Source: Gemmatimonas sp. (GTDB taxonomy: Bacteria > Gemmatimonadota > Gemmatimonadetes > Gemmatimonadales > Gemmatimonadaceae). Taken from it: a stretch of DNA of 64,000 nucleotides. The stretch covers positions 128,001 through 192,000 of the forward strand of contig JANNVQ010000029.1 in the NCBI GenBank assembly GCA_031414535.1, written 5' to 3'. Position 1 is the first letter of the stretch; every line of letters starts with the position of its first letter. This document shows positions 14,913 to 57,890 of the stretch, one piece after another. A program made the position numbers and the translations under genes. Under the pieces are notes generated by a model. The model was not told the origin of the DNA and ran no database searches. It saw nothing but the letters and a program-made list of their open reading frames with translations.

Positions 14913-17570
14913 ATGAATGCAACGCAGGAACGTCTCGCGGCGGCCCTTGCCGACCGCTACCGCATCGAGCGTGAGCTCGGCGCCGGCGGGATGGCCACCG
15001 TCTACTTGGCGCACGACCTTAAGCACGATCGCGATGTAGCCATCAAGGTGTTGCACCCGGATCTCGGCGCCGCGCTCGGCGGTGAGCGCTTCTTAGCCGA
15101 GATCCGCACGACGGCGCGCTTGCAGCATCCGCATATCCTCCCGCTGCTCGACAGCGGTGAGGCGGATGCGCTGCTCTACTACGTGATGCCGCTCGTGACC
15201 GGCGAGACGCTGCGCGCGCGGCTCGAGCGCGAGAAGCAACTGCCGATCGCCGAAGCCGTGCGCATCGCGCGCGAAGTGGCGAGCGCGCTCGACTACGCGC
15301 ATCGGCAGCACGTGATTCACCGCGACATCAAGCCGGAGAACATCCTCCTGCATGATGGTAGCGCACTCGTCGCCGACTTTGGCATCGCCCTCGCGGTGCA
15401 GAGTGCGGGCGGCGCGCGCATGACGCAAACGGGACTCTCGCTTGGCACGCCGCAGTACATGAGCCCAGAGCAGGCGATGGGCGAGCGCGCCATTGATGCG
15501 CGCAGCGACATCTATGCGCTCGGTGCCGTGACCTACGAGATGCTCGCCGGGGATGCGCCATTCACCGGCAGCAGCGTGCAGGCCATCGTGGCCAAGGTGC
15601 TCAACAGCGAGCCCGAACGACTGTCGATGCTGCGGAAGACCATTCCGCCGCACGTCGAAGCGGCGGTGCTCACCGCGCTGGCCAAGTTGCCGGCCGATCG
15701 GTTTGCGAGTGCGGCCGAGTTTGCCGCGGCGCTGGCGACGGCGAATGGGTCGCCGGTCAGCGGTGCCACGACAGCGCCGGCACCGGGCCGCGCGCGGCGT
15801 ACGACGGCCGCGATACTGCTGAGCGCGGCCATGCTCATCGCCATCACCGCCGCTGCGACGTGGATGCTGGCGAGGCCGAGTGGAAACGGTGCAGCGCCCT
15901 CCGAAGTGGTGACGCGATTCACCATCGAAGGCACGAGCAACGTGACGTTGCAGAACCGCCTATTTGCGCTCTCCCCCGATGGCCGCACCTTGGTGATGTG
16001 GCAGTTCACCGCCAACCTCAGAAACCGACTGTTCCTGCGCCAGCTCGACCAGCTGGACATGACGCCTCTTGCCGGGGGCAGCAACGGAGCCGATCCGACG
16101 TTCTCGCCCGACGGTCGCTGGATCGCCTTTGTGGGGGAACGCCAGCTCTTCAAGGTGGCCGTGTCCGGCGGCGATCCGATTCGCGTTGCCACGCTGCCGC
16201 TGCAGCCCCAGGGCATCACGTGGACGACTGGTGGCGACATCGTGTACGCCGTGCAGTCCGACTCGCTGTTCGCGGTGAAGGAAACGGGCGGGGTACCCCG
16301 CGCGATTGCCGCGGCGCCGGCGGGCGCCGTGGCGCGTTGGCCCATTGCGCTGGCACAGTCGAACGTGGTGCTTTTCACGGCTAACTCCCGTACGGGCGAC
16401 TCTGTGCGTGTGCTCGCGCTTTCTCTCGCGGACGGAACAGTCAGCGACGTGGGAACCGATGCCTATATGGTGGTGGGAGTTGCCCGCGGCCATCTGGTGT
16501 ATCTGAGTCGCACCGGTGAGATCTTTGCCGCGCCATTCAACGTGCGTACGAACACCGTCACGGGCCGCGGCGAACTGATGGGCGGCGGCGTGAAGATGAC
16601 CCCCAGTGGCACGGGACTGGGCTACGCGGTGATGTCAGCGTCGGGTGACTTGGTGTACATCAATGAGAAATCCGCTGGGCTGCTGACGTATCGCGATCCG
16701 CAGGGCCGACTCGCACCGGCACTGCCGGACACGCTGGCCTTTGAGCACCCGCGCTTCTCACCCGACGCTCGTCGCCTCGTGGTGACGGTGAGCGATAGTG
16801 CCACGCGACGTGGCACGCTCAGCCTGCTCGACCGTTCCAACGGATTCTTCACGCCACTTGCCGGACAGGACCGACAGGCTGGACGTGATCGCGCCGAGTG
16901 GACACCCGATGGTCGGAGCATACTCTTCCGCTCGCTCACCGACTCGTTGCGGAGCGCGATGCTGCGCTCGGCCGATGGCAGTGGTACCGATACGCTACTC
17001 TTGCGGGCGAGAAGCGTCGTGTACGAAGTGGTGATGGCACCCGATGGCCAGACGATTCTTGGCCGTGTCCAGAACGACGCGGCCGATCGCGCCCAGGGTG
17101 TGTTCTGGTGGACACGCGGTGACAGCACGCTGCGCTCGTTGCCGCACGTGACGACGGATGGTGGCACGATGACCGGTGCCCGTCTCTCGCCCGATGGAAA
17201 ATGGATCGCGATGAGCGCGGACGCCGAAAGACACGTGTACGTCGCGCCCTTCCCGGGCCCCGGCCCCCAGGTGCGTATCGACCGCGCCGGTGGTGGCCCG
17301 CCGGTGTGGGCGCGCGACGGTCGCAGCCTCTACTACGTCACGCCGAGCGGCCTGGTGGCCACGACCCTCGATCTCTCGGCGGGGGTTAAGGTGGGCAGCA
17401 CGCTAACACTACTCGGCCCCGAGTTCGTGTCCAACGATGTCACGCATGCACCCTTCGACGTGGGGCCCGATGGCACGATCGTGTTCGTGCGGCAGACGCG
17501 ATTCCCGAGGCTGGTGGTGGTGCGCAACTTCGCGGCGGAGATTGGGCGCGCTCAGGCGGCGGGGAAGTAG
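14913..17570 (+). CDS. Ser/Thr kinase 3: kinase(class A)-TM-PD40/TolB beta-propeller
   Basis: Full Hanks motifs; TM AAILLSAAMLIAITAAATWML; many SPDG repeats; C-terminal LVVVRNFAAEI. Confidence 0.93.
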   Translation: MNATQERLAAALADRYRIERELGAGGMATVYLAHDLKHDRDVAIKVLHPDLGAALGGERFLAEIRTTARLQHPHILPLLDSGEADALLYYVMPLVTGETLRARLEREKQLPIAEAVRIAREVASALDYAHRQHVIHRDIKPENILLHDGSALVADFGIALAVQSAGGARMTQTGLSLGTPQYMSPEQAMGERAIDARSDIYALGAVTYEMLAGDAPFTGSSVQAIVAKVLNSEPERLSMLRKTIPPHVEAAVLTALAKLPADRFASAAEFAAALATANGSPVSGATTAPAPGRARRTTAAILLSAAMLIAITAAATWMLARPSGNGAAPSEVVTRFTIEGTSNVTLQNRLFALSPDGRTLVMWQFTANLRNRLFLRQLDQLDMTPLAGGSNGADPTFSPDGRWIAFVGERQLFKVAVSGGDPIRVATLPLQPQGITWTTGGDIVYAVQSDSLFAVKETGGVPRAIAAAPAGAVARWPIALAQSNVVLFTANSRTGDSVRVLALSLADGTVSDVGTDAYMVVGVARGHLVYLSRTGEIFAAPFNVRTNTVTGRGELMGGGVKMTPSGTGLGYAVMSASGDLVYINEKSAGLLTYRDPQGRLAPALPDTLAFEHPRFSPDARRLVVTVSDSATRRGTLSLLDRSNGFFTPLAGQDRQAGRDRAEWTPDGRSILFRSLTDSLRSAMLRSADGSGTDTLLLRARSVVYEVVMAPDGQTILGRVQNDAADRAQGVFWWTRGDSTLRSLPHVTTDGGTMTGARLSPDGKWIAMSADAERHVYVAPFPGPGPQVRIDRAGGGPPVWARDGRSLYYVTPSGLVATTLDLSAGVKVGSTLTLLGPEFVSNDVTHAPFDVGPDGTIVFVRQTRFPRLVVVRNFAAEIGRAQAAGK

Positions 17571-17596
17571 GGGATGCGCCGTCACGAACATCGCGC

Positions 17597-18007
17597 CTAC
17601 GGCACCAACGACACCAAGCGGTTCTGTGCCGTGCGCACCGCGCCGAAATGACGCCGGTCGGTGGTGAGGATCTCGCGCGCATCGAGTCGTTCGGCAACGG
17701 CAATCACCGTCGCATCAACGAAGCCCAAGGGGAAGTTGAGATACGTACGCATCAGCTCCGAAGCACGAATCACGTCGTCCGACTCCACCGGCTCGATGAT
17801 CAACTCGCCGTCCGCCACCGATTGCACGAAGGCCTGCTCCGCCTGCGCACTGATGCGCGTTTGCAGCAAGTAGCACACTTCTGGTAGCACGGTGACCGGC
17901 ACGCGCACCTGACGCGCCTGCGCGGTCCACCACGCGGTGACTCGCTCGTGCCACGCGTCACTACGATCGATCAACGCATACAGGGGACCGGTGTCGGCGA
18001 TGACCAT
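17597..18007 (-). CDS. vapC: PIN-domain toxin (VapC family)
   Basis: IADTGPLYALIDRSDAWH, VLPEVCYLL, LGFVDATVIAVAERL, ILTTDRRHF; its ATG overlaps the antitoxin stop (TGATG). Confidence 0.93.
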   Translation of the reverse strand: MVIADTGPLYALIDRSDAWHERVTAWWTAQARQVRVPVTVLPEVCYLLQTRISAQAEQAFVQSVADGELIIEPVESDDVIRASELMRTYLNFPLGFVDATVIAVAERLDAREILTTDRRHFGAVRTAQNRLVSLVP

Positions 18008-18237
18008 CAGCCGTGCGGATCTTTCCAGAGCAGGGTGTCCACCTGCTCTGATGTATTGCTCACGCCACTCGCAAACTGCCCGGCGATGGAGGGCAACGGC
18101 GACGGCGCGCCCGGAGCGGCGAGATACATCGCCACGGCCTCGCGAACCAGAGACGCCGTACTCACGCCCGTGCGCTGCGCGACTCGATGCAACTGGAGCA
18201 TCATTTGGTCATCGAAGAACACCGTGGTGCGTTTCAT
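18007..18237 (-). CDS. vapB: RHH/CopG-family antitoxin (VapB)
   Basis: MKRTTVFFDD...LHRVAQRTGVSTASLVREAVAMYL; directly upstream of the PIN gene. Alternative start at 18255. Confidence 0.88.
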   Translation of the reverse strand: MKRTTVFFDDQMMLQLHRVAQRTGVSTASLVREAVAMYLAAPGAPSPLPSIAGQFASGVSNTSEQVDTLLWKDPHG

Positions 18238-18239
18238 GA

Positions 18240-18267
18240 CATATATATGGCGCATATGCGCATCATA
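18240..18267 (-). promoter_or_regulatory. vapBC promoter/operator: -10 TATGAT and two palindromes
   Basis: CATATATATG (18240-18249) and GCGCATATGCGC (18250-18261) are perfect palindromes; TATGAT on the minus strand at 18267-18262. Confidence 0.65.
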
Positions 18268-18309
18268 GTCAAGGCTGCGATGATGTGCGAATCTTACTCG
18301 CCATTTTAA

Positions 18310-18346
18310 GACTATAGTCATTGACTATAGTCATGAGTTATATACT
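18310..18346 (+). promoter_or_regulatory. phd-vapC promoter/operator: two GACTATAGTC palindromes and -10 TATACT
   Basis: GACTATAGTC at 18310-18319 and 18323-18332 (13-bp period); TATACT at 18341-18346, 6 nt before ATG 18353. Confidence 0.75.
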
Positions 18347-18352
18347 TATATA

Positions 18353-18610
18353 ATGCCCACCAAGCCCACTGAGACCATCGCCATCTCCGAGTTCAAGGCC
18401 ACCTGCCTGGCCGTCCTCGAACGCGTACGCCGCACCGGCGCGTCCATCGTTGTCACCAAGCGCGGCGAGCCGATTGCTGAGATCAACCCGCCTTCGCCGG
18501 CGAGCACCGGTGAGCAGTGGCTCGGGTCGATGAGCGGCACCGCCACGATGGCGGACGATCTGATTGCGCCCGCCAGTGCCTCCACCGACTGGGACGCGCT
18601 CGGCACGTGA
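18353..18610 (+). CDS. Phd/YefM family antitoxin
   Basis: IAISEFKATCLAVLERVRRTGASIVVTKRGEPIAEI; GTGA overlap with the PIN gene. Confidence 0.92.
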   Translation: MPTKPTETIAISEFKATCLAVLERVRRTGASIVVTKRGEPIAEINPPSPASTGEQWLGSMSGTATMADDLIAPASASTDWDALGT

Positions 18611-19005
18611 AGAAGCTCTTACTCGATACCCACATCTGGCTTTGGGCACTGCTAGATCCCGCCCGCCTCTCACCGGCGGTCCGAGCCGAACTTGCGTCCG
18701 CCGAGAACGAGATTTGGCTCTCACCAATCAGTGTGTGGGAAGCGATATTGCTCGCCGAGCGCGGGCGTGTGCGCGTTGACACGACGCCCGCGGAGTGGGT
18801 GGCGCGTATGGTGAGCGCACTCCCGCGACGCGAAGCGCCGCTGACGCACGACATCGCGGTCGCCAGTCGGCTGCTTACGCTCGTGCACGAGGATCCGGCG
18901 GATCGGTTCCTCGCGGCGACGGCGCAGGTGCTGGGTCTCACGCTGGTCACCGCCGACGCGCGGCTCATTGCATCCACGGAGTTTGCAGTAATGGCGAATC
19001 GATGA
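18607..19005 (+). CDS. vapC: PIN-domain toxin (VapC family)
   Basis: LLLDTHIWLW, LSPISVWE, HEDPADRFLAATA, LVTADARL; GTG start 18607; stop overlaps the ATG of kinase 4. Confidence 0.93.
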   Translation: MKKLLLDTHIWLWALLDPARLSPAVRAELASAENEIWLSPISVWEAILLAERGRVRVDTTPAEWVARMVSALPRREAPLTHDIAVASRLLTLVHEDPADRFLAATAQVLGLTLVTADARLIASTEFAVMANR

Positions 19006-21671
19006 CCGACGTTCAATCGCGCCTCGCGGCGGCGCTGGCTGACCGGTATCGCATTGAGCGTGAACTCGGCCAAGGCGGGATGGCCACGGTCTATCTCGCG
19101 CGCGACCTCAAGCACGACCGTCAAGTCGCGTTGAAGGTCCTGCGCCCAGAACTCTCGGCAGTGATCGGCGCCGAGCGTTTCTTGGTGGAGATCAAGACGA
19201 CGGCGAACCTGCAACATCCGCACATCCTCGCGCTCTACGACTCGGGCCAGGTGGACGGCACTGTTTTTTACGTGATGCCCTTTGTGGCAGGCGAATCGCT
19301 GCGCGACCGACTCGCGCGCGAGAAGCAGTTGCCCGTCGCCGATGCGCTGCGCATCGCGTCAGAGATTGCGAGCGCGCTCGACTATGCGCATCGGCAGGGC
19401 GTGATCCATCGCGACATCAAGCCGGAGAACATCCTGCTGCACGATGGCCGCGCTCTTGTGGCCGACTTCGGCATCGCGCTGGCCGCGAGCCGCGGCGATG
19501 GCAGCTCGCGGATGACCGAGACGGGAATGAGCCTCGGCACGCCGCACTACATGAGCCCCGAGCAGGCACTCGGCGAGAGGAACCTCGATGCGCGCTCGGA
19601 TGTGTACGCGCTTGGTTGCGTATTGCACGAGATGCTCGCGGGCGAGCCGCCGTTCACGGGGCCCAATGCGCAGGCGGTGATTGCGCGGGTGATGAACTCC
19701 GCACCCGAGCCGGTGACGGCGCTGCGGAAGTCGGTGCCGGATGCGGTGGCCGATGCGATTCTCACGGCGCTGGAGAAGTTGCCGGCGGATCGGTTCGCGA
19801 GCGCGGCGGAGTTCGCGGCGGCATTGAGTGCCGATGGCGCGTCGGGTGCGCACCATACGTCGAGGACGCGCGCGCGTGCATCTGCTAAGACATCGAGAGG
19901 CTCGCGCGTGCTTTGGCCGGCCGCTTTTGTTGTTGCTGCGGTTGCGGCGGCGTGGGGTTGGATGCGCCCGAGCGAATCGGTGGAGTACCCGCCTTCGCGC
20001 CTTGCGATTCCAGCGCCTGGGCTGGGAGGGGGCAACGCAACTCTGCAGAGGATCATCGACATCTCGCCGGACGGGCGCACGCTGATCTACGTCGATGCCG
20101 CCGAAGCCGGCTCTCGTCTCGTGCGCCGGCGTCTCGAGAGCGCGGAGGCGACGCTGCTCACGGCAATTCCGACGGACTTCGCCGGCCCGGTGATCTCGCG
20201 CGACGCACGAGAGCTCGTGGCGACGCACATGGGGCTCTCCCAGATGTTCCGCTTCCCGATTGACGGGGGGAGCGGGAAGCCGCTTCCGCGCGAACTCGCC
20301 TGGTCGAACTACCTCACGTGGGGGGACGATGGATCACTCTGGACAACCCCGCAGAGCGATCGCGCGCGAGGAATCGTACGAATCGCACCGACCGACGAAG
20401 TCAGCTACCTATTCGACACTACGCTCGTCGGCTACAGCCTGCAGGACATTCTCCCAGGCGACCGCTACGGCCTCGCGGTGCGCAATCCTCTTGGCACCGC
20501 CTTCGGACCGGCGTCCGTCGTGGACCTCAAGAGCGGCGAGACTACGCCACTGCTCAGTGTGGACGTGGTGGAGATTCGATACACGCAGGGCCTGCTCGTC
20601 TACGTGCTCAATAGCGGCTCGCTTGAGGCCGTGCGATTCGACCCGCGCACACGGCGCACGAGTGGATCGCCGTTTGTGATTGCCTCCGATGTCTCACTCA
20701 CGGGTGGTGGACAAGCGCAGTTCGCGGTGGCCGACAATGGCACCGTCGTCTACGTGCCAGACAGTCCGCGATCGCTGGTGCTCGTTGACCGCGCTGGCAT
20801 TGCGCGCGTGGCTTTCAGTGAGGGGCGGAACTTCCACATTCCGCGATTCGCACCAGATGGTCGTCGCCTGCTCATCGATTTCACGACCGCCGACGGTCGC
20901 GACGTCTGGCAGCTCGACTTCGCGAGCGGCGCCATGTCGCGGGTGACCTTTGATCGCGACGGACACGATGCAACGTGGGAGCCGGATGGACAGCATCTGA
21001 CCTACGCCTCGGCCAACCGCGCTGGGGGGGCGCTGACGATATACCGGACTGCCGTGGGCCAGTCGGGGCAGGTGGACTCACTCTTCTCAAATGGCGCGGT
21101 CTCCTACACGGGCATATGGCTCCCAGACCGCAGCGCACTCGTAACCGTCGGCACCAGTCTCGCGGGTGACTCACGCTCCGACATCGCCATCGTGCGCAAT
21201 GGCGGGCGAGGCCCGGTGGAACTGTTGGTCGCGACACGATTCGAGGAACACTTCCCCTCGGTATCACCCGATGGCCGCTGGCTCGCCTACGTGTCGGACA
21301 AGTCAGGAACCTCAGACGTCTTCGTGCGGCCGCTTGACCGCGACGGCGAGGAGATTCGTGTCTCGCTCGCCGGCGGGAGCGAGCCGATGTGGGGCCCGGA
21401 TGGGCGCGAACTGTTTTATCGCGAGCCGGTGACGAAAGGCGTGATGCTCACGGCGGCGACACTCAGCCTCGCCCCGGCGCTCGCGGTGACGGCGCGCAAG
21501 CAGTTGTTCGACGTCACGCAGATGTCCACCACCGCGCCGCACTCGAACTACGATGTCTCGCCGGACGGTCGCAGCTTCGCGATGGTACGGCAGAATCCTT
21601 CGACGCGCATAATGGTGATTCAGAATCTTCCAGCGCTGGTGCAGCAGATGGAACGCGGGGAGCAGCGGTGA
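19002..21671 (+). CDS. Ser/Thr kinase 4: kinase(class D)-TM-PD40 beta-propeller
   Basis: ATGA overlap with vapC; Hanks motifs; TM VLWPAAFVVAAVAAAWGW; SPDG repeats. Confidence 0.93.
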   Translation: MTDVQSRLAAALADRYRIERELGQGGMATVYLARDLKHDRQVALKVLRPELSAVIGAERFLVEIKTTANLQHPHILALYDSGQVDGTVFYVMPFVAGESLRDRLAREKQLPVADALRIASEIASALDYAHRQGVIHRDIKPENILLHDGRALVADFGIALAASRGDGSSRMTETGMSLGTPHYMSPEQALGERNLDARSDVYALGCVLHEMLAGEPPFTGPNAQAVIARVMNSAPEPVTALRKSVPDAVADAILTALEKLPADRFASAAEFAAALSADGASGAHHTSRTRARASAKTSRGSRVLWPAAFVVAAVAAAWGWMRPSESVEYPPSRLAIPAPGLGGGNATLQRIIDISPDGRTLIYVDAAEAGSRLVRRRLESAEATLLTAIPTDFAGPVISRDARELVATHMGLSQMFRFPIDGGSGKPLPRELAWSNYLTWGDDGSLWTTPQSDRARGIVRIAPTDEVSYLFDTTLVGYSLQDILPGDRYGLAVRNPLGTAFGPASVVDLKSGETTPLLSVDVVEIRYTQGLLVYVLNSGSLEAVRFDPRTRRTSGSPFVIASDVSLTGGGQAQFAVADNGTVVYVPDSPRSLVLVDRAGIARVAFSEGRNFHIPRFAPDGRRLLIDFTTADGRDVWQLDFASGAMSRVTFDRDGHDATWEPDGQHLTYASANRAGGALTIYRTAVGQSGQVDSLFSNGAVSYTGIWLPDRSALVTVGTSLAGDSRSDIAIVRNGGRGPVELLVATRFEEHFPSVSPDGRWLAYVSDKSGTSDVFVRPLDRDGEEIRVSLAGGSEPMWGPDGRELFYREPVTKGVMLTAATLSLAPALAVTARKQLFDVTQMSTTAPHSNYDVSPDGRSFAMVRQNPSTRIMVIQNLPALVQQMERGEQR

Positions 21672-24304
21672 CCGATGTGGTGAATCGACTCACGGCTGCC
21701 CTTGCGGACCGGTATCGCATTGAGCGCGAGCTGGGGCAGGGCGGGATGGCCACGGTGTATCTCGCACACGACCTCAAGCACGATCGCTTGGTTGCCGTGA
21801 AGGTGTTGAAGCCAGAGCTGGCGGCCGTGCTCGGCGCCGAGCGGTTCGTTGTGGAGATCAAGACCACGGCGAGCATGAGCCATCCGCACATCTTGCCGCT
21901 GTTCGACAGCGGCGCGGCGGACGGCTTCCTCTTCTATGTGATGCCGTTCATCGAAGGCGAGACGCTGCGCGACAAGCTGAACCGCGAGACGCAGCTCGGC
22001 ATCGATGATTCCGTGCGCATCGCGCGCGAAGTGTTGGACGCGCTCGAGTACGCGCACTCGCGCGGCGTGATCCATCGCGACATCAAGCCGGAGAACATCC
22101 TGATGCAGGGTGGCCGGCCGATGATCGCGGACTTCGGCATCGCGCTGGCCGTGTCAGCTGCAGCGGGCGGCCGCATGACGGAAACGGGACTCAGCTTGGG
22201 CACACCGCACTACATGAGCCCCGAGCAAGCGACAGCCGAGAAGGAGATCAGCGGACGCAGCGACGTGTATTCGCTGGCGAGCGTGCTCTACGAGATGCTC
22301 GCCGGCCAGCCGCCGCACCTCGGTGGCAGTGCGCAGCAAATCATTATGAAGATCATCACCGAGCCGGCCGAAGCGGTGACAAAGTATCGGAAGTCTGTGC
22401 CCGCACACGTGGCGGCGGCGGTGGCGACTGCGCTCGAGAAGTTGCCTGCTGATCGATTCGCGACGGCGAGGGCATTCGCTGACGCATTGCAGTCAACCAC
22501 GTACACCCGTGCGGGCGGTCACAGCTTCGCTGCTAGCGCGACGACACCGGACTGGCGCGCCAAGGCGGCCGTTCCGGCGCTCGCGCTCTCGGCCTTGCTG
22601 CTCGCGGTCGTGGTTTGGGGGGCGACGCGCCAAGTGGAACTTCCGCTCGTGGCGCGCTATGAGATTGCTCTCGGTTGGTTGGCCTCCGGTGAGCTTGCGA
22701 ATATGCAGATTTCGCCCGACGGCTCCGAGTTAGTCACGGTGCGCCACTCGGAGGGACGCACGAGTCTTTTTGTGCGCCGCCGAGACCAACTGGAGCCGGT
22801 GGAGTTGGTTGGTACGGAAGGAGCAGGCAATCCCTCGTACTCGCCAGACGGCAGCAAGATCGCGTATATGAACGGCTCCGGCATCTACGTCTTCGACCGT
22901 GCCGCCGGACTCTCAACGCTGCTCACCGACTCGCTGGTCGGTGTACCCGGTGTCGCTTGGGGCTCCGACGGCTACGTGTACTACGACAGCCGCGGGGTGG
23001 GACCGTTACTGCGCGTGCGTGAAACAGGAGGCGCACCGGAGGCAGTCTCGACGCTCGACACCGCCGCGAAAGAGTTGCAACACGTGTGGCCCGACCCGCT
23101 GCCAAACGGGAAGGGCGTGCTGATGGTGATCAATCGCGGTGGTCCCGGCCAGGGCGCGTCCGACACCGATGGAATTGCGGTGCTCGACCTGCGTACGGGC
23201 ACGCATCGCGAACTCTTCCGGGGTGTCTTCGCGCGCTATGCGACGAGTGGGCACCTGTTGTACGTGACGCGTGAAGGTGACCTGATCGCCGCTCCGTTTG
23301 ACCAAGGTCGCCTCGAGGTCACAGGGACGGGCGTCGTCGTCGCGAAGGGGGTTGCCGTGCGCACCGGCGGCACCGGTGCGGTCGATCTCTCGATCTCTCG
23401 CACGGGCACGCTCTGGTATGCGATTGGCGGACGCGGCTCCGCTCAACGGGAGGCGCTGTGGGCGACGCGGGACGGCAGCGTGGGCGCGATGCGTCCGGAG
23501 CTGGTGGGCAACCTCCTCGATGTCGCGATCTCGCCTGACGGCAGGCGACTTGCCTACATCTCACGCGTCAACGACGGTGGGCGCATCTGGGTCCAAGACC
23601 TCGCGAATGGAAACCGCGAGCGACTCACCTTGGAGCAGAGCTTTTCGGAACTCGCATGGAACCGGGATGGGCGCACGCTGATTGGCGGCACTGCGGGGGG
23701 GGTGCTGCACAGGGTGATGGCCGACGGCAGCGCACCGGCCACGGCTCTCGCCAGCGTCACGCGAACCGCCCAGAACGTGCAGTGGACTCCCGACGGGAAA
23801 GGTTTGACCTACGCCATTCGCAATGGCACGGACGTCGAGATTATGTCGTTCCGTCCGGGAAGCGACACTGCGCCCGTCGCATTAGTGCGCACGCCCGGCG
23901 TGAATCGAGCGCCGTCAGTGTCACCGGATGGGAAGTGGCTGCTCTTCCAGTCGGCGCGCTCCGGTGTGAGTCAGATTTTCGTGCGCCAGTTTGCGGGCAC
24001 GGCGGGCGCGCTTCGTCAAGTATCGTCGGGCAACGGGTTCGACCCCGTGTGGTCGAAGGACGGTCGCGAGATCTTTTATCGAACGCTCTACGACTCGCTC
24101 GTGTCGGTGCCGGTACTACCTGGTCCCTCGTTCGCCGTGGGAACTGAGCGTGTGCTCTTCTCCACGCGCGGCGTCACGGATTGGGATGTTATGCCGGATG
24201 GTCGCCGCTTCCTGCTGGTGCGCGAGCGCGAGGCCGCGGAGCCTAAGCGGCTGATCGTTATTGAGAACTTCCACGAAGAGTTAAAGGCGAGGGTGCCTCA
24301 ATGA
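21668..24304 (+). CDS. Ser/Thr kinase 5: kinase(class B)-TM-PD40 beta-propeller
   Basis: GTGA overlap; HRDIKPENILMQGGRP; TM AVPALALSALLLAVVVWG; PD40 repeats. Confidence 0.93.
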   Translation: MTDVVNRLTAALADRYRIERELGQGGMATVYLAHDLKHDRLVAVKVLKPELAAVLGAERFVVEIKTTASMSHPHILPLFDSGAADGFLFYVMPFIEGETLRDKLNRETQLGIDDSVRIAREVLDALEYAHSRGVIHRDIKPENILMQGGRPMIADFGIALAVSAAAGGRMTETGLSLGTPHYMSPEQATAEKEISGRSDVYSLASVLYEMLAGQPPHLGGSAQQIIMKIITEPAEAVTKYRKSVPAHVAAAVATALEKLPADRFATARAFADALQSTTYTRAGGHSFAASATTPDWRAKAAVPALALSALLLAVVVWGATRQVELPLVARYEIALGWLASGELANMQISPDGSELVTVRHSEGRTSLFVRRRDQLEPVELVGTEGAGNPSYSPDGSKIAYMNGSGIYVFDRAAGLSTLLTDSLVGVPGVAWGSDGYVYYDSRGVGPLLRVRETGGAPEAVSTLDTAAKELQHVWPDPLPNGKGVLMVINRGGPGQGASDTDGIAVLDLRTGTHRELFRGVFARYATSGHLLYVTREGDLIAAPFDQGRLEVTGTGVVVAKGVAVRTGGTGAVDLSISRTGTLWYAIGGRGSAQREALWATRDGSVGAMRPELVGNLLDVAISPDGRRLAYISRVNDGGRIWVQDLANGNRERLTLEQSFSELAWNRDGRTLIGGTAGGVLHRVMADGSAPATALASVTRTAQNVQWTPDGKGLTYAIRNGTDVEIMSFRPGSDTAPVALVRTPGVNRAPSVSPDGKWLLFQSARSGVSQIFVRQFAGTAGALRQVSSGNGFDPVWSKDGREIFYRTLYDSLVSVPVLPGPSFAVGTERVLFSTRGVTDWDVMPDGRRFLLVREREAAEPKRLIVIENFHEELKARVPQ

Positions 24305-26973
24305 GCGGAATCGCAGAGCGGTTGTCGGCAGCTCTCGCCGACCGCTACCGCATCGAGCGCGAGCTTGGCCAGGGCGGTATGGCGACGGTGTATCTCGCTG
24401 AGGATCTCAAGCACAAACGTCGCGTCGCGGTGAAGGTCCTGAAGCCCGAGCTCGCCGCCGTGCTCGGCGCCGAGCGCTTCGTGCAGGAGATCACGACGAC
24501 AGCCGCGCTCCAGCATCCGCACATCTTGCCGCTGTTTGACAGTGGCGAGGCGGACGGCTTCCTGTACTACGTGATGCCGTTCATCGACGGCGAAACGCTA
24601 CGAGGCAAGCTCGACCGCGAAACACAGCTTGGCGTGGACGAAGCCGTGCGTATCGCGAGTGACGTGGCGAGCGCGCTGCATTACGCGCACACGCACGGCG
24701 TGATCCATCGCGACATCAAGCCGGAGAACATCCTGCTGCACGATGGCCGGCCGATGGTGGCGGACTTCGGCATCGCGCTCGCAGTCTCAGCCGCAGCGGG
24801 CGGACGCATGACGGAGACGGGCTTAAGCCTCGGCACGCCGCACTATATGTCGCCAGAGCAAGCGACGGCCGAGAAGGAGATCACGGCGAAGAGCGACGTG
24901 TACTCGCTAGGGTCCGTGCTCTATGAGATGCTCACGGGCAACCCGCCGCACGTCGGCGCGAGCGCGCAGCAAATCATTATGAAGATCATCACCACGCCGG
25001 CCGAGCTGGTGACGGTGCATCGCAAGGCAGTGCCTGCGAATGTGGTGGCGGCGGTGGCGACTTCACTGGAGAAGCTGCCGGCCGATCGCTTCGAGAGTGC
25101 GAAGGCCTTCGCCGAGGCACTGAAGAATCCGTCGTATACAACGACGCTCACCGGAGCGGAGGTCGGCGCGTTTGGTGCACAGCGCGGAGTTTCCTCGCGG
25201 CTATTCGCAGCTGTAGGTGCGCTCGCGGCCCTCGCGCTCATTGCCGCGGCCTGGGGCTGGAGCCGTGCCGCCTCGCCAGTGCCGCCTCAGGTGATCCGCT
25301 ATGTGGACGCGGAACTGACCGATAGTCTGCGGGCGACCACGCTCTTCCCCTCCATCGCAATCTCGCCGGACGGGCGTCGCATCGTGTTCGGCGGTGGAGG
25401 ACGGCTCTACCTGCGCGACCGCGACCAGATGACGGTCGTAGCACTGCCTGGCACGGAGCGCGGCATCACACCGGCATTCTCGCCGGATGGGCGGCGCATC
25501 GCCTTCTGCATTCTTAACGCCTCGGCCAACTGTTCGTTGCGCGTGGTCTCGCTGTCCGGCGGGCCTCCGACGACGCTCACGGATGGCGGAGGAGCTAGGG
25601 CCGCATGGGGGCCCGACGGGACCTTCTACCTCTCAGGCAGTGGCTCCGCCGGTCTTCTCCGCCTGCCGGAGACTGGAGGAACGCCGACCCCCTTCACCAT
25701 CCTCGACACGGCGGCCGGAGAGTTGCGGCACGTCGGGCCCGACGCGTTGCCCAACGGTAAGGGTGTGCTCTTCGTCGTCGAACGTGGCGCCGGGGAGGGC
25801 GAGATCGCCGTAGCAGAGTCCGAGACGGGAACGCACCGTCGACTCGGCTTGAGCGGCATCAAGGTGCGGTACGCTTCGGGGCACATTCTCTTCGTAACCA
25901 CCGACGGCACTCTGATGGTCGCCCCGTTCGACCAAGGTCGAATGGCCGTCACCGGCGAGGCCCGCGCCATCGACGAGGGGGGCAGCGTCCAGAATCTGGG
26001 CTCCGATCTCGCCATCTCTTCCACTGGGACCCTGATGTACGCGAAGGGCACCCGCGCCGCCGGTAGGGATCAGGCGGTGTGGATGGAGAGCGACGGGAGA
26101 GAGCGACCCGGGGACCTGTGGACGGCGGACTTCGCCGACCTGGCGTTGTCGCCGGATGGATCGCGTTTGGTGGTGGGCATCCGCGTGAATGGCATCGTGA
26201 CGCTCTGGGTGCGTCAGGGCGAGCGCGGTCAACTTGCGCGGCTCACGCTTGCCGCCGACGGCAGCTGCGTGGAGCCGGCGTGGACGCCGGACGGCCGCTC
26301 CGTCGCGTACATATGCAGGACGGGACCGAGGACTGCAGTGTACCAGCGCCGCGCGGACGGGAGTATGCCGGCGGAGCTGCTCTTCGAGTGGAAGCGGCCC
26401 CTGCCGCCCAGCGACATCGCGTGGACCCCTGACGGACGTACCCTAATCGTGCAGCTGCCCACGCCGGAGGGTGCTGAGTTGTTCAGGATACGCCCTGGGG
26501 TGGACAGCATTCCTGTCCCGCTGCTGGCGACGCGGCTCTTCGGCCGCGCCCCCGCCGTCTCTCCTGATGGTCGCTGGCTCGCGTACTCGAGCAACGAATC
26601 GGAGCGAGGGGAGGTGTACGTCCGTCCCTTTCCCGACCCGAGCGGCTCCCGCACACTGGTATCCACTTCCGGTGGTGTCGATCCCGGCTGGTCGCCGTCG
26701 GGGCGAGAGCTGCTGTTCACGCGGCGTGCAGCGAGCGCCGACGCGGAGGAGATGGTCTCGGTCGCGGTGAATGCGGGAGGGGCAGACTTGAGCGTTGGCC
26801 CGGAGCGGGTCTTATTCACTGCGGCGCGACTCTCCTATTGGGGACGGAGGCCGGACGGCAAGCAATTCGTCATCGTGCGTCCGACCGTCGCCGCTGCACG
26901 AAGCGACGTCAAGGTGGTGGTGGTGGAGAACTGGTTTGCGGAATTGGGTGCGTTTGCTAAGGAGCGGCCGTGA
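24301..26973 (+). CDS. Ser/Thr kinase 6: kinase(class C)-TM-PD40 beta-propeller
   Basis: ATGA overlap; Hanks motifs; TM LFAAVGALAALALIAAAWGW; PD40 repeats. Confidence 0.93.
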   Translation: MSGIAERLSAALADRYRIERELGQGGMATVYLAEDLKHKRRVAVKVLKPELAAVLGAERFVQEITTTAALQHPHILPLFDSGEADGFLYYVMPFIDGETLRGKLDRETQLGVDEAVRIASDVASALHYAHTHGVIHRDIKPENILLHDGRPMVADFGIALAVSAAAGGRMTETGLSLGTPHYMSPEQATAEKEITAKSDVYSLGSVLYEMLTGNPPHVGASAQQIIMKIITTPAELVTVHRKAVPANVVAAVATSLEKLPADRFESAKAFAEALKNPSYTTTLTGAEVGAFGAQRGVSSRLFAAVGALAALALIAAAWGWSRAASPVPPQVIRYVDAELTDSLRATTLFPSIAISPDGRRIVFGGGGRLYLRDRDQMTVVALPGTERGITPAFSPDGRRIAFCILNASANCSLRVVSLSGGPPTTLTDGGGARAAWGPDGTFYLSGSGSAGLLRLPETGGTPTPFTILDTAAGELRHVGPDALPNGKGVLFVVERGAGEGEIAVAESETGTHRRLGLSGIKVRYASGHILFVTTDGTLMVAPFDQGRMAVTGEARAIDEGGSVQNLGSDLAISSTGTLMYAKGTRAAGRDQAVWMESDGRERPGDLWTADFADLALSPDGSRLVVGIRVNGIVTLWVRQGERGQLARLTLAADGSCVEPAWTPDGRSVAYICRTGPRTAVYQRRADGSMPAELLFEWKRPLPPSDIAWTPDGRTLIVQLPTPEGAELFRIRPGVDSIPVPLLATRLFGRAPAVSPDGRWLAYSSNESERGEVYVRPFPDPSGSRTLVSTSGGVDPGWSPSGRELLFTRRAASADAEEMVSVAVNAGGADLSVGPERVLFTAARLSYWGRRPDGKQFVIVRPTVAAARSDVKVVVVENWFAELGAFAKERP

Positions 26974-29615: not shown

Positions 29616-29640
29616 TGCCCGCAACAAAGGTGGAGGCGAT

Positions 29641-37673: not shown

Positions 37674-37674
37674 C

Positions 37675-47966: not shown

Positions 47967-48002
47967 TTGGCTGATGTTAGCCCGCGCCTTTGGGTGTCGG
48001 TA

Positions 48003-48018
48003 TCATCCCAAAGTATGT
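48003..48018. promoter_or_regulatory. Imperfect inverted repeat upstream of the NarL-family gene (possible regulator box)
   Basis: TCAT-CCCAAAGT-ATGT, about 44 nt upstream of the ATG in an AT-richer gap. Confidence 0.25.
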
Positions 48019-48065
48019 CACTACTTCGCGGGATTGCTTCCCATCCGAGCCGACGGTAAAGCCTG

Positions 48066-49070: not shown

Positions 49071-49126
49071 TTCAGAGCACCGGCGATTGGCGTGAGGGCT
49101 TTCCGTCGCTAAAGTATCATCAGAGC

Positions 49127-52194: not shown

Positions 52195-52276
52195 TGTTGG
52201 CGGCGTTGGGAAGGGATGGAGGCCTGGGGCAAACATACTCTTGCCCCCTCCGTATCGTCAGGCAGATTTCTTCTAC

Positions 52277-55189
52277 GTGACTCCCCTCCCAGATCGTCTT
52301 GTCGCCGCCTTGGCTGACCGCTACCGCCTCGAGCGCGAACTCGGCGCGGGCGGAATGGCTACGGTGTACCTGGCGCAGGATCTCAAGCACGATCGAAAGG
52401 TCGCCATCAAGGTCCTGCGGCCAGACCTCGCGCGATCGCTCACGGGTGATCGCTTCCTGCGCGAAATTGCGATCACGGCGCGCCTCAACCATCCGCATAT
52501 CCTCACACTGCTCGACTCGGGAAGCGCCGAGAGTGGCGAGATACTCTACTACGTGATGCCGGTTGCCACTGGCCAGTCGCTCCGCGACCGCCTCGCGAGC
52601 TGCGGGGCTCTGTCGCCGGCGGAGGCTCTGCGCATCGCCGGTGACGCCGTGGAGGCGCTGGTTCACGCGCATTCCTGCGGCGTGGTGCATCGCGACATCA
52701 AGCCCGACAACATCCTGCTCTCCGAAGGCCACGCTATCGTGGTGGACTTTGGTATCGCCAAGGCGGTCGGAGCGGCGCGCGAGACTCAGACTCTCACGAG
52801 CGAAGGGACATCGCTTGGTACGCCCGCCTATATGGCGCCAGAGCAGGCGGCTGGGGAGGCCGATGTTGATCATCGGGCTGACGTGTACGCTGTGGGCGCC
52901 GTGTTGTTCGAGATGCTCGCTGGCGCGCCACCGTTCACCGGAAGCTTCCAACAGGTCGTGATGGCGAAGATGGCGAAGGATGCGCCCGCTCTTTCGACAA
53001 CGGCACCAACGCTCGCACCGGCCTTGGTGCAACTCGTGGCCCGCTGCCTCGCGCGCGATCCCACGCGGCGCCCCGCGACGGCCGAAGCTTTGCTCGCTGA
53101 ACTGCGTGCACTGGCACAGCCCGATGCCAGGACCCACAAGCAAAGCGTTCGCACGCAGGTACTCGCTACGACAATCGCCGTGGCGGCGGTCGTGATTCTT
53201 GGCGCGGTGTTCTTTGGAGATCGCCGTGCGCGCTGGGTGCAGGACAGCGCGTTGCCAGAAATTGCACGGCTGATTGAGGCCGACGAACTCGATTCAGCCT
53301 ACGCACTTGCTGAAAGAGCCGAGGCTCGTGCGCCGGGCGACTCGGCCCTGGCGGCCCTGTGGCAGAAGATCGCTATGACGCAGGAATTCCTCAGCGAACC
53401 CAGCGGTGCTCTGGTGACGCGTGCCGCGGTGAACGACACGACTCAATGGGTTGCGGTCGGGACCACACCAACCGGACCGGTTCGTGTGCCACGCAATGCG
53501 TGGTTCTATCGCTACTCGCTGCCCGACCATCGCCCATTGACGATTATGGGTGCTCGACTGGGTGGAAGCTACGCACCCATTCCCAGTCCTGTGCCTTTGC
53601 AGAAGCGAAGCGATCCCGATTCCGGGATGGTGTTGCTGCGTGGGCGCGGCCTTGTCTCGACCCTGTATGGGGTCTCGTCGGGTGAGGCCCTCGATCTCGC
53701 GGACTTCTTGATGGACAAACTCGAAGTCACGAACCGTGAATATCAGGCATTTGTGAATGCTGGCGGCTATCGCGACGCGAAGTGGTGGGATTCGACAATC
53801 GTCAGCGATGGTCGTGCCATCGAGTGGCGCACAGCGATGGCGCGCTTCGTTGACGAGACTGGTCGCCCTGGTCCTGCGGCTTGGGAGGGCTCCGCGCCAA
53901 AGCCGGGTACGGAAGACCTCCCAGTGGGTGGTGTGAGTTGGTACGAGGCGCGCGCCTATGCGCGCTTTGTCGGGAAGAACTTGCCGACGGTGCTCGAGTG
54001 GAATGCGGCAGCTATCCCCGAAGCGGCGCGCTGGGTGGTTCCCAATGGGCGCTACGATTCCGAGGGGCCAGTGCGCGGCGGCGCCGCCGGCGGTGTGAGT
54101 CCGCGCGGCATCTACGATATGGCGGGCAACGTTCGTGAGTGGGCGGCCAACGCGCGCGAGCCAGGCAAGCGCTTCATCCTTGGCGGTGGCTGGTCCGATC
54201 CCGCCTATCTCTTTTCCGAAGCTTATACCGCGCCGGAGTTCGATCGCTCCGCGATCAACGGCATCCGCCTGGTGCGCCGGCTGAGTGATGCACCCGCACT
54301 CACCCTTGCGCTCGCGCCCCTTTCGCGCGGAGCACGTGACGTCGTCAATGCAAAGCCAGTGGACGACGCGACCTTCCGCGGTTTCCTCGCCCTGTACGAC
54401 TACGATCGAAGGCCTCTCAATGCGGAAGTGACGGCGCGCGACAGTACGCACCCTGACTGGGTCCGCGAAGACGTCGTCTTCGACCTGCCCAGCGGTGGCC
54501 CGCGGATGGCGCTTGCGATGTTTCTCCCCAAGAGAACTGCGCCACCATACCAAACCATTGTGATTTGGCCGGCTTCCGACGCCTTTATCAGTAGCGATTC
54601 GCGAAAGCTCTCGATGAGCTATGTGGACTTTCTCATTCGTAGTGGCCGCGCCGTCGTGTATCCCATCTACGAGCACACGTACGGAAGAGGCGTGAGCCTG
54701 AGCGCGGATAAGCCCTCGGCGACCATCGAACACCGCGACCAGATGCTGCGGTGGACCACGGAGATGCGACGTTCGATTGACTATGCATTCTCGCGGACGG
54801 ACATCGATAGCACGCGACTCGCCTACGTAGGTACCAGTTGGGGCGCACGCATTGGCGGCACCGTCCTCGCAGTCGAGCCGCGTATTCGAACAGCGATTCT
54901 CAATGTGCCGGGATTCAACGCGGCAATGGTACGCCCCGAGGAGGATCCGCTCAACTTCCTCCCTCGTATTCGCATTCCCGTACTAATGCTCAGTGGCCGG
55001 TACGACAGCGTTTACCCCTATGAGTCGTCGCAAGCACCCTTCTTCCGTTTGCTCGGATCGCCCCCTGACGAGAAGAAGCAAGTGATGTTTGAGGGCGGGC
55101 ACTTTCTCCCGCGTCCGATGTGGGTGGCCGAGTCGACGCGCTGGCTGGACGAGCGATTTGGTGCGGTAACTCCTCGTACAAACGACTGA
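52277..55189 (+). CDS. Ser/Thr kinase 11: kinase-TM-FGE-fold-alpha/beta hydrolase fusion
   Basis: HRDIKPDN, DFG, APEQ; TM IAVAAVVILGAVFF; EVTNREY, VSWYEARAY, LPTVLEW, YDMAGNVREW; GTSWG, GRYD, GGH triad. Confidence 0.9.
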   Translation: MTPLPDRLVAALADRYRLERELGAGGMATVYLAQDLKHDRKVAIKVLRPDLARSLTGDRFLREIAITARLNHPHILTLLDSGSAESGEILYYVMPVATGQSLRDRLASCGALSPAEALRIAGDAVEALVHAHSCGVVHRDIKPDNILLSEGHAIVVDFGIAKAVGAARETQTLTSEGTSLGTPAYMAPEQAAGEADVDHRADVYAVGAVLFEMLAGAPPFTGSFQQVVMAKMAKDAPALSTTAPTLAPALVQLVARCLARDPTRRPATAEALLAELRALAQPDARTHKQSVRTQVLATTIAVAAVVILGAVFFGDRRARWVQDSALPEIARLIEADELDSAYALAERAEARAPGDSALAALWQKIAMTQEFLSEPSGALVTRAAVNDTTQWVAVGTTPTGPVRVPRNAWFYRYSLPDHRPLTIMGARLGGSYAPIPSPVPLQKRSDPDSGMVLLRGRGLVSTLYGVSSGEALDLADFLMDKLEVTNREYQAFVNAGGYRDAKWWDSTIVSDGRAIEWRTAMARFVDETGRPGPAAWEGSAPKPGTEDLPVGGVSWYEARAYARFVGKNLPTVLEWNAAAIPEAARWVVPNGRYDSEGPVRGGAAGGVSPRGIYDMAGNVREWAANAREPGKRFILGGGWSDPAYLFSEAYTAPEFDRSAINGIRLVRRLSDAPALTLALAPLSRGARDVVNAKPVDDATFRGFLALYDYDRRPLNAEVTARDSTHPDWVREDVVFDLPSGGPRMALAMFLPKRTAPPYQTIVIWPASDAFISSDSRKLSMSYVDFLIRSGRAVVYPIYEHTYGRGVSLSADKPSATIEHRDQMLRWTTEMRRSIDYAFSRTDIDSTRLAYVGTSWGARIGGTVLAVEPRIRTAILNVPGFNAAMVRPEEDPLNFLPRIRIPVLMLSGRYDSVYPYESSQAPFFRLLGSPPDEKKQVMFEGGHFLPRPMWVAESTRWLDERFGAVTPRTND

Positions 55190-55241
55190 GACCTACGATG
55201 ATTCATCTCTGCTCGTGCAGTATTCTCGTTTTGGAATCGCG

Positions 55242-57890
55242 ATGACCGATGTGATGCAGCGCCTCTCGAAGGCCCTCGCCGACCGCTACCGCATCGAGCG
55301 CGAACTCGGCGCGGGCGGTATGGCCACGGTGTACCTCGCCGAGGACCTCCGGCATCGTCGCAAAGTCGCGCTCAAGGTGCTGCGCCCTGAGCTCGCGGCC
55401 GTCATCGGCGCCGAGCGCTTCCTTCAGGAGATCACCACTACCGCGGCGCTACAACATCCGCACATCCTCCCGCTGTTCGATTCTGGCGAGGCGGACGGCT
55501 TCCTTTTCTATGTGATGCCGTTCATCGATGGCCAAACGCTACGCGAGCGGCTGCAACGCGAGCGGCAGCTGGGCCTCGATGACGCATTACGAATCACGCG
55601 GGAAGTGGCGGATGCGCTGCAGTATGCGCACGAGCACGGCGTAATTCATCGCGACATCAAGCCGGAGAACATCCTGCTCGCCAACGGCCGTCCGATGGTC
55701 GCCGACTTCGGCATCGCGCTCGCGGTCCAGCAGGCTGGCGGCGAGCGGATGACGCAGACTGGACTCTCGCTCGGCACGCCGCAGTATATGAGTCCAGAGC
55801 AGGCGATGGGCGAGCGTACGCTCGATGCGCGCGCCGACGTGTACGCGCTGGGTGCGGTGCTCTACGAGATGCTCACGGGCGACCCGCCGTTCACGGGGTC
55901 GAGTGTGCAGGCCATCGTGGCGCGCATCTTGAGTGAGCGGCCGACGCCAATCGAGACCCTGCGCGACACGGTTCCATCGTCCATCACGGCGGCGGTGTCG
56001 CGCGCACTCGCCAAGCTGCCGGCGGATCGTTTCGCCTCGGCGGCACAGTTTGCGCAGGCGCTCAGCAACACTGGCCAATCGGGGGCCGCATTCGCCGTCC
56101 AGCGTCCGAGCAAGCCTGGAGTCTCGCGCCTCGTTGCGGCGCTTGCCGCCGTCACGGTAATCAGCCTTGGCTTGGCCGCTTTCGCGCTCACTCGATCCAG
56201 CAGTACGGGCCTGGCGATGCAGTCCTTCGACGCGGCGCTACCAGATACCGCGAAGATGGCGCCCGAAGTGCAGTTCGCCACCGTCGGTTTCGGCGGCGCT
56301 GTGAGGAATCTCTCTCTGTCTCCCGATGGGAGCTTCCTCGTGTATGTGGTTCAGCGCAACGACTCCAGCTCCCTCTGGTACCGCAGCCTCATTGATGCCT
56401 CGCTACGCCGCATTCCCGGCACCGACGGTGCTATGTCGCCCCGCGTGTCTCCAGACGGGCAACGGATTGTCTTTTTGGCCAAGGGAAACCTCGTCATTGT
56501 GCCTCTCGAGGGCGGAGCACCGCGCGTGCTTCGCGAGGGGGTGAGTCGCAGCGCCGAATGGATCTCGCCGAGCAAGCTGTACGCCTTTGATAATGACGGA
56601 TATCGGCTCATCTGGATTGATGCCGATGCTGGTGTGCTTGAAGAGATATCGCTCGAGAGTCAGGGGATGCGCTGCATCTTCGGTGTGTGGCTCCCTGAGC
56701 AGGAACGCCTGCTCTGCAGCTTCAACGAGACGGCGAAGCTCTTCAATCCGCGCGTGCCTGGCGATACGGTGATTCGCACCACCGCAGCCAGTGGTGAGCT
56801 TGGCCCGCCAGTGTCTGGATCTAACTTCCGCATCATTGACGGGCGCTACTTGCTCTATGTGACGCTCGACGGCGAATTGCGGGCGGCGAGCTACGATGCC
56901 AAGAAGCTCAGCATCGGCCGTTCAGTCGCGCTAGCCTCGGGCGTGTACCGTGACGTCCTCGGTGCCACGCAGCTTGATATCTCCGCGAATGGCACACTGG
57001 TGTATGCGCCGGCCGCGGGCCCGATGTCCTTGCAACTCGTGGAACAGGAAGAAGGCGCGGCGCCGCTGCCCTTGCCGGTGGAACCTGCGGCGTTCCTCCG
57101 CTTCGATCTCACGCGCGAGCGGCGACGACTTGCTGCCGTCGTTGGCACGCGCGATGGGCAAGAGCTCCGCGTGTATGATTTGCGCTCCGGGCAGCGTTCG
57201 GTATGGTTGCGCGGGCAGGATATCCAGTTCCCCGCTTGGAGCCCGCGAGGGGACCGGCTTGCGGTGCAGATTCTCGTGGACGCACAGCGTCGTCTGGTGA
57301 TTGGTTCACCTGAATCATCGAGCGCTCCCGAGACGCTCAGTGTGGCAAGCGGCGCCATCTCCACGCTCGACGCGATGGAGTTCATTGACGAGCAGACCAT
57401 TTTGGTGCGTGACCCGGATAAAGCCTTCATCGCACGCCTAGACATCTCCACGAAGCCCGCGCGCCTCGACACCTTGGTGCAGGGTGGCATTTTCGCCAGC
57501 GTCTCGCCCGATAGACGGAGGCTGGTGTGGCACACGCCTCGAGGCGGCACGCTCTATGTGAGCAGTTTTCCACCCAACGACACGCGCAGCACCATCGCCG
57601 AGAATGCGGTAGAGCCGTTGTGGCTTTCTTCCACGGATTTGCTCTACCGCTCGGGCAACACGTGGTACCTCGCGCAACTCGATGCCGCTACCGGCGAACT
57701 CACGGGGCCCCCTCGCCGCTGGGGAAAAAATCCGCTGTTCCTCGATACTCCCGGGTGGTCAAACCGGCTTTCACACGATCGCGGCATCATTTATATGTCG
57801 CGTGTAGAAGCGGCTGCGGCATCCTACCTGCGACTGATGCCGGACTTCATCACTCGAATGAAGGCCGCGGTGGCCGCTGCGAATCGCTAA
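55242..57890 (+). CDS. Ser/Thr kinase 12: mosaic kinase-TM-divergent beta-propeller
   Basis: Hanks motifs; TM LVAALAAVTVISLGLAAFAL; sensor shares motifs with kinase 8. Confidence 0.92.
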   Translation: MTDVMQRLSKALADRYRIERELGAGGMATVYLAEDLRHRRKVALKVLRPELAAVIGAERFLQEITTTAALQHPHILPLFDSGEADGFLFYVMPFIDGQTLRERLQRERQLGLDDALRITREVADALQYAHEHGVIHRDIKPENILLANGRPMVADFGIALAVQQAGGERMTQTGLSLGTPQYMSPEQAMGERTLDARADVYALGAVLYEMLTGDPPFTGSSVQAIVARILSERPTPIETLRDTVPSSITAAVSRALAKLPADRFASAAQFAQALSNTGQSGAAFAVQRPSKPGVSRLVAALAAVTVISLGLAAFALTRSSSTGLAMQSFDAALPDTAKMAPEVQFATVGFGGAVRNLSLSPDGSFLVYVVQRNDSSSLWYRSLIDASLRRIPGTDGAMSPRVSPDGQRIVFLAKGNLVIVPLEGGAPRVLREGVSRSAEWISPSKLYAFDNDGYRLIWIDADAGVLEEISLESQGMRCIFGVWLPEQERLLCSFNETAKLFNPRVPGDTVIRTTAASGELGPPVSGSNFRIIDGRYLLYVTLDGELRAASYDAKKLSIGRSVALASGVYRDVLGATQLDISANGTLVYAPAAGPMSLQLVEQEEGAAPLPLPVEPAAFLRFDLTRERRRLAAVVGTRDGQELRVYDLRSGQRSVWLRGQDIQFPAWSPRGDRLAVQILVDAQRRLVIGSPESSSAPETLSVASGAISTLDAMEFIDEQTILVRDPDKAFIARLDISTKPARLDTLVQGGIFASVSPDRRRLVWHTPRGGTLYVSSFPPNDTRSTIAENAVEPLWLSSTDLLYRSGNTWYLAQLDAATGELTGPPRRWGKNPLFLDTPGWSNRLSHDRGIIYMSRVEAAAASYLRLMPDFITRMKAAVAAANR

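Follow-up and report, generated by a model that had tools for sequence, protein, structure and literature searches.

Tandemly arrayed receptor-type Ser/Thr kinases with kinase and sensor halves of different ancestry, probably through recombination between kinase repeats

Introduction

Domain shuffling among bacterial receptors is well described, but its mechanism is usually hidden. The locus described here, a row of receptor-type Ser/Thr kinase genes, raises the question of how the two halves of neighbouring genes came to have different ancestries. Here, neighbouring genes and sister genomes allow crossovers to be placed inside the catalytic domain and one swap to be polarised. We assign a probability of about 80% to the reading that this is a tandem receptor kinase array with kinase and sensor halves of different ancestry, most likely generated by homologous recombination between kinase repeats that swapped sensors and reordered genes. 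The window, the whole stretch of 64,000 nucleotides analysed, is G000:C29:128001-192000, and G000 denotes its genome.

Gene inventory and layout

The window contains 12 Hanks-type kinases, all 12 of which score above the PF00069 cut-off. Nine of the 12 combine a transmembrane helix with what is predicted to be a double six-bladed TolB-like propeller. K1 to K10 form one co-oriented row (10182-37673), with K11 and K12 located another 15 kb along. G000 as a whole has 42 kinase ORFs, 14 of them with a propeller region. Matches to K8 at E<=1e-60 are found in 30 of the 31 genomes searched, often within arrays. Letters A to D below are the kinase classes that the first-pass annotation had defined by short motifs.

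10182..12659, + strand: K1, kinase with transmembrane helix and TPR-type region; first gene of the array
12656..14890, + strand: K2, kinase with TPR region; transmembrane helix not clear (hydropathy 1.0)
14913..17570, + strand: K3, class A kinase; helix 15813-15869; double propeller
17597..18237, - strand: VapBC-type pair between K3 and K4 (RHH antitoxin 18007-18237, PIN toxin 17597-18007)
18353..19005, + strand: Phd/YefM antitoxin and PIN toxin; 4-base overlap between the toxin stop and the start of K4
19002..21671, + strand: K4, class D kinase, helix, double propeller
21668..24304, + strand: K5, class B kinase; sensor 43% identical to that of K6; outer part modelled, 22628-24301
24301..26973, + strand: K6, class C kinase, 96% identical to K8; sensor related to K5; putative break at ~24736
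26970..29615, + strand: K7, class C kinase; sensor lineage of its own
29616..29670, + strand: 25-base spacer plus the opening codons of K8; they move together with the K7 sensor and in G006 stand before another kinase gene
29641..32292, + strand: K8, class C kinase; sensor related to K12
32289..34994, + strand: K9, class A mosaic; resembles K3 up to ~32790 and the paralogue C29z from there through linker and helix
35031..37673, + strand: K10, class B kinase; sensor lineage of its own; last gene of the array
52277..55189, + strand: K11, kinase with helix, FGE-sulfatase domain and alpha/beta hydrolase
55242..57890, + strand: K12, mosaic kinase, class C-like before ~55716 and class A-like after; sensor related to K8

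Several other genes surround the array. A 1776-residue protein with Ig-like domains is encoded on the minus strand (4687-10017), divergent from the array start, and is followed by a small gene that matches BsuPI weakly. A minus-strand ORF of 398 residues (37675-38871) adjoins the array end; neither this ORF nor another of 584 residues (41473-43227) has a Pfam match. An amino-acid permease gene (61534-63078, minus strand) lies 3.6 kb from K12.

The class order along K3 to K10 is A, D, B, C, C, C, A, B, just as first annotated. All 16 motifs named in that annotation are present in the 12 window kinases, 13 of them in exactly the named genes. The other three, MTQT and AMGER of class A and TTTAAL of class C, also occur in K12. 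This gene had been left unclassed and is a C/A mosaic. The KLPADRF motif is conserved except in K10, which has Cys for Arg.

Domain structure of the propeller kinases

The nine propeller kinases share one layout of an intact RD kinase, a single membrane helix and a propeller region of 550 residues. The Gly loop, the VAIK lysine and the HRD..N, DFG and GTPxY..PE motifs are kept in all nine. Basic residues are commoner before than after the hydrophobic helix in seven of the nine genes, which suggests that the propeller region lies outside the cell. PASTA repeats were not found in the window kinases. The six proteins tested match NF033483, the model of PknB/Stk1 PASTA kinases, in the kinase part only, with 264-296 bits against a cut-off of 450 bits. 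Scores for the curated NCBIfam models of anti-phage MAD6 (161-186 of 460 bits) and BREX PglW (73-90 of 990 bits) also lie below the cut-offs.

The outer region of K5 (22628-24301) was modelled from a 77-sequence alignment. The model (pLDDT 93, pTM 0.89) consists of two six-bladed propellers, and it was compared with cluster representatives. Residues ~269-536 match TolB (Z 28.0, rmsd 2.5, 252 aligned). The other propeller matches PknD (Z 21.5, rmsd 2.7, 233 aligned over residues 10-547) through PDB 1rwi, the PknD extracellular domain, at 9% identity. Since the PknD match spans residues 10-547, the last strand would close the first propeller, and the outer region is therefore predicted to move as one block. 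A single-sequence fold of K6 reached a pLDDT of 40 and was discarded.

PknD of Mycobacterium tuberculosis is a Hanks kinase with one membrane helix and a six-bladed propeller. The array kinases follow this plan of kinase, single membrane helix and six-bladed propeller. However, they do not carry a single NHL-type propeller. Instead, they have PD40 repeats and two propellers of the TolB/PD40 type, with TolB as the best match. Furthermore, unlike PknD, they stand as many paralogues in a row and have exchanged sensors.

In the K5 outer region, the turns between strands a and b are conserved (mean 0.63) and the b-c loops are variable (0.25), a pattern common to propellers in general. The b-c loops of a propeller face the usual binding side. 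The helix-plus-propeller unit is also carried by BTAD regulators without a kinase, which make up 17 of the top 119 matches to the K6 sensor; in six that were checked, the sensor unit is 45-46% identical to that of K6. P0036, P0041, P0059, P0068, P0071, P0076 and 11 more are of the BTAD/SARP type and have the same C-terminal ENWF motif as the kinases. Atlas look-alikes come mostly from Acidobacteriota. Homologues bear Gemmatimonadota protein names, which makes this the likely phylum of the organism.

Kinase and sensor relationships disagree

Genes with nearly identical kinases carry sensors that are scarcely alike. Kinase and sensor identities are 96 and 23% for K6-K8, 92 and 20% for K7-K8, 93 and 32% for K6-K7, 89 and 25% for K3-K9, and 88 and 28% for K5-K10. 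For the pairs that group by sensor, they are 82 and 43% (K5-K6) and 69 and 32% (K8-K12).

The disagreement proposed in the first-pass annotation was borne out by AU tests on the nine genes, in which each alignment rejected the tree of the other. The kinase alignment rejected the sensor tree (p=1.8e-5) and the groupings 5+6 (1e-46) and 8+12 (4.4e-4). The sensor alignment rejected the kinase tree (p=1e-75) and the clades 6+7+8 (7.9e-7), 6+8 (1.9e-4) and 5+10 (0.028). Clade 3+9 was not rejected by the sensor alignment (p=0.096); the other five of the six forced clades were. Deep branches of the sensor tree are weakly resolved (bootstrap 43-60), and only the two pairs named at the outset, 5+6 (97) and 8+12 (100), are firm.

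Breakpoints and the age of exchange

A triplet scan of the 14 propeller kinases of G000 (1005 triplets, Bonferroni correction) placed breaks in K12 at residue ~159, in K9 at ~168 and in K6 at ~146 (corrected p 0.005, 0.005 and 0.035); the other 11 of the 14 kinases do not pass the correction. In K12, informative sites are 33:7 in favour of class C before the break and 8:32, class A-like, past it. K9 changes from 19:3 (K3-like) to 0:17 (C29z-like). The K12 and K9 breaks lie near the catalytic loop and activation segment. Exact 20-mers common between kinases are most frequent at codons 120-160, next to the inferred breaks. With synonymous sites alone, one of the 14 children reached a Bonferroni value of 0.05. 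The kinase halves also conflict with each other (AU p=0.03 and 3.5e-4).

P0002, whose sensor is 75% identical to that of K6, bears on the K6 break. Its C-lobe is 94-98% identical to K6 and residues 101-150 only 78%, which is in line with a K6 break near 146. K9 and C29z are alike through the linker and helix (62% of DNA positions) and then drop to the background of 24%. A change-point at the kinase end, seen in 66 of 72 pairs, was left out of the breakpoint count because it coincides with a domain edge.

The PHI test over all positions gave p=5e-4 for the nine genes and for the 14. At third positions, it gave p=0.03 for the 14 genes and was not significant for the nine window genes (p=0.40). 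In a GENECONV-like test, none of the 91 pairs survives Bonferroni correction (best p=0.007), and the longest identical run between copies is 59 bases. The exchanges are thus old, as indicated by the lack of longer identical runs, the weaker third-position signal and the lack of a significant perfect tract.

Recombination had been proposed within or just after the kinase domain. Three independent lines support this, with a refinement: the triplet-scan breaks, the K9/C29z junction and the sensor swap of L052 described below. Of the breaks that can be resolved, most fall within the kinase, which makes the kinase classes mosaics in their own right; whole genes have also moved, and the events are old.

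Sensor exchange across genomes

From 43 loci, 103 kinase rows were collected; after partial, duplicate and TPR-type rows were dropped, 68 full-length propeller kinases remained. Together with the 14 of G000, they give a comparison set of 82 genes from 10 genomes. In this set, whose relatives were sampled via K8 matches, not as complete kinase sets, and whose kin are not independent, genome labels change 45 times on the kinase tree, versus 53.9 after shuffling, and none of 1000 shuffles was as low. On the sensor tree, there are 55 changes versus 54.0, and 770 of 1000 shuffles were as low. With G006 left out, 32 of 56 genes have their nearest kinase within their own genome; for the nearest sensor, the count is 11 of the 56, with 11.3 expected by chance. 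Kinases thus group by genome and sensors by lineage, which is the pattern of the Tlp chemoreceptors discussed below.

Four sensor clades were examined (K5, K8/K12, K9 and K10), and each carries at least two kinase classes. Three such cross-class groupings, when forced on the kinase tree, were rejected (p=5e-5, 5e-4 and 3e-3). L052 is the clearest case, with a sensor that shows 63% identity to that of K8 and groups with it (bootstrap 100), nested in a clade otherwise found on class C kinases. The L052 kinase belongs to class A; of its first four 50-residue windows, three are 88-98% identical to K3/K9. L052 allows one sensor swap to be polarised. Another locus, L051, has a 92% match to the K8 sensor.

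The region G029:C3:305619-405265 (L031-L037) holds 26 kinase genes in ~100 kb, and array neighbours with unrelated sensors fall in common kinase clades there. After position 15764 of G013:C16, a sensor stop is followed by a stub resembling a kinase start, and G010:C77:18727-19305 contains a broken kinase of class A. Both are possible debris of unit loss.

Gene order in a sister species

The sister species G006 holds largely the same genes in a different order. Joined by an exact 98-base contig overlap, the G006 order is K4'-K1'-small gene pair-K2'-K3'-X-K8'-K10'. The small gene pair (end of L021, start of L011) is presumably BrnT/BrnA-like. K7' has a PP2C phosphatase gene before it and a class B gene after it, and K9' sits near the C29z locus. 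An overlap of the G006 contigs C202 or C102 with C173 was not found. The phosphatase gene directly upstream of K7' is L013:1734-2813 (minus strand); no kinase gene directly follows its homologue in G000 (C17:84401-85030).

These junctions bear on the rival account that survives best, in which gene conversion alone homogenises patches of the kinases, sensors stay in place, and the order changes are unrelated moves of whole genes. The clustering of kinases by genome and their patchy mosaicism would be expected from it, and the C29z start was kept although its upstream region changed. However, the 25-base spacer and first codons past the K7 stop are homologous in the two genomes and precede different kinases. 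The first eight codons differ in six of eight orthologue pairs (0.42-0.54 identity), versus 0.88 in K3, whose neighbour is unchanged. In addition, codons 13-45 of K9 resemble, in each of the two genomes, the paralogue present locally: those of G000 are 92.9% K3-like and 78.8% like their own orthologue, and those of the G006 orthologue are 87.9% C29z-like. We therefore regard conversion alone as quite improbable. The start-region patterns would fit crossovers just inside the 5' end. Retention of the start region is clear at the K7 junction and not at K4 or K8 (one of three testable junctions).

Proposed mechanism

Under recombination between kinase repeats, the ~800 bases of kinase DNA that flank every sensor, 75-88% alike between closer copies, would serve as homology arms. 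These arms may be used by unequal crossover, by conversion or by DNA arriving from relatives, and exchange would occur mostly near the catalytic loop, at the 5' end and at the kinase end. Ligand-induced autophosphorylation with reset by PP2C is known from PknB and PknD biology. By analogy, a periplasmic ligand on the propellers may trigger kinase autophosphorylation, with PP2C resetting the system. Many sensors would feed a few kinase output classes; if sensors are swapped, the cell could rewire signals to responses.

In a more far-reaching view, which we consider unlikely, the array would be a combinatorial repertoire of receptors under selection, the bacterial equivalent of receptor-kinase clusters in plants. 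Sensor lineages of ancient origin would be kept and traded between species via the kinase arms, toxin-antitoxin pairs would guard against collapse, and the helix-plus-propeller module, also present on BTAD regulators, would detect phage, predators or neighbours.

Other explanations

A dedicated site-specific system of the integron or shufflon kind could move sensor cassettes, and the head-to-tail units with 4-base overlaps and the toxin-antitoxin pairs between units are reminiscent of one. We hold it very unlikely: none of 25 tyrosine-recombinase (PF00589) matches lies on an array contig (five genomes, several fragmented), the kinase DNA of the 82 kinases has no over-conserved motif (best window p=0.16), and breaks occur at several different places. 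Integron cassette arrays and the C-terminal displacement of Rhs/CDI loci combine a conserved repeat with a variable 3' part; their units are gained, lost and reordered, and toxin-antitoxin pairs occur in such arrays. Unlike in these systems, no integrase was found on the array contigs and no conserved site in the kinase DNA, and every G000 unit is a full gene. In G000, no kinase head or sensor tail was found outside a kinase gene; the two sensor-tail matches of the orphan search correspond to the ends of K3 and C49b. The G000 array lacks the orphan C-terminal modules, or tips, and the immunity genes of polymorphic toxins such as Rhs/CDI.

The discordance could also arise without recombination, if slow kinases and fast sensors produced tree conflict by saturation and convergence. 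Sensors do evolve faster (dN/dS 0.07-0.42 versus 0.03-0.09 in kinases), with no positive selection seen at the whole-domain level, deep sensor nodes are weak, and the 66 change-points lie at a natural domain end. However, K6/K8 has a kinase dN of 0.03 and a sensor dN >1.0, a ratio of >30 versus ~1-6 in orthologues. Four-fold distances in six G000/G006 orthologue pairs are 0.28-0.77 (kinase) and 0.34-0.50 (sensor). Those among K6, K7 and K8 are 0.37-0.49 in the kinase, as close as the orthologues, with saturated sensors. This synonymous clock discriminates well for class C alone, since cross-class kinases share ~0.54 of four-fold sites. Rate differences do not explain the discordance, as K12 and K9 are mosaics with internal breaks. 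Together with these breaks, the rejected forced groupings and L052, which pairs a K8-like sensor with K3/K9-like kinase windows, largely refute this account and leave it scarcely credible.

Assembly artefacts in a metagenome-assembled repeat array have a negligible probability: no single public contig spans the array and contigs break in conserved kinase parts, but contigs of run X1 (0-2 differences), possibly the source sample, bridge C-lobe to sensor in K5-K10, separately assembled orthologues of K3, K4, K7, K8, K9 and K10 keep the class pairing, the G006 orthologue of K9 is the same K3/C29z mosaic, and identical runs are short.

Ongoing switching was not found in public contigs. Four joints at 99% likeness were seen, all with sides of <30 bases, and none is a credible rearrangement joint; public contigs drop rare variants, so that absent joints are no proof of stasis. 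Small shares occur in runs X3-X9, of which X3 and X4 look like relatives; the public runs listed include no RNA data set.

Relation to known receptor families

The shuffling principle is already known from histidine kinases and Campylobacter chemoreceptors. In the group A Tlp receptors of Campylobacter, low-identity ligand-binding halves are found on high-identity signalling halves, with extensive recombination (PMC6433261). Compared with the portion of that work considered here, the array differs in that its output is a Ser/Thr kinase and not a chemoreceptor domain, several output classes are mixed in long tandem arrays, and the exchange is old. In histidine kinases, lineage-specific expansion and domain shuffling yield new sensor-kinase combinations, with the mechanism left open in the sections drawn on here (PMC1630713). 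Unlike in that case, as those sections describe it, the array sensors share a single fold, and adjacent repeats allow breakpoints to be located within their catalytic domain. The large Ser/Thr kinase families of Planctomycetes, with their varied partner domains, have been ascribed to duplication and shuffling; a tandem receptor array or a mapped crossover is absent from the parts of that account used here (PMC8567305).

Literature searches, with most subscription journals and supplements outside their scope, found no description of these arrays. The natural chimeras K6/K8 (almost the same kinase, different sensors) and K8/L052 (related sensors, kinases of different classes) are ready reagents. 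They suit asking whether the input and output of a Ser/Thr kinase are independent, and what the very large receptor family of Gemmatimonadota and Acidobacteriota senses.

Toxin-antitoxin pairs in the arrays

Besides the two toxin-antitoxin pairs between K3 and K4, others occur in the arrays of G010, G018 and G029. Three of eight listed PIN genes of G029 lie within 93 kb of 3.9 Mb (p=7e-4), with one further PIN gene besides; at least four PIN toxin-antitoxin loci stand between kinase genes of this array. The excess in G000 is not significant (two adjacent pairs, one locus, p=0.09). That such pairs guard the array is a guess, and variable regions gather them anyway. A similar Phd-PIN pair stands directly before a kinase start at L042:2747-3396 and in the window at 18353-19005, with different kinase and sensor. 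Run X3 holds a 735-base piece of the Phd-PIN pair at ~95%.
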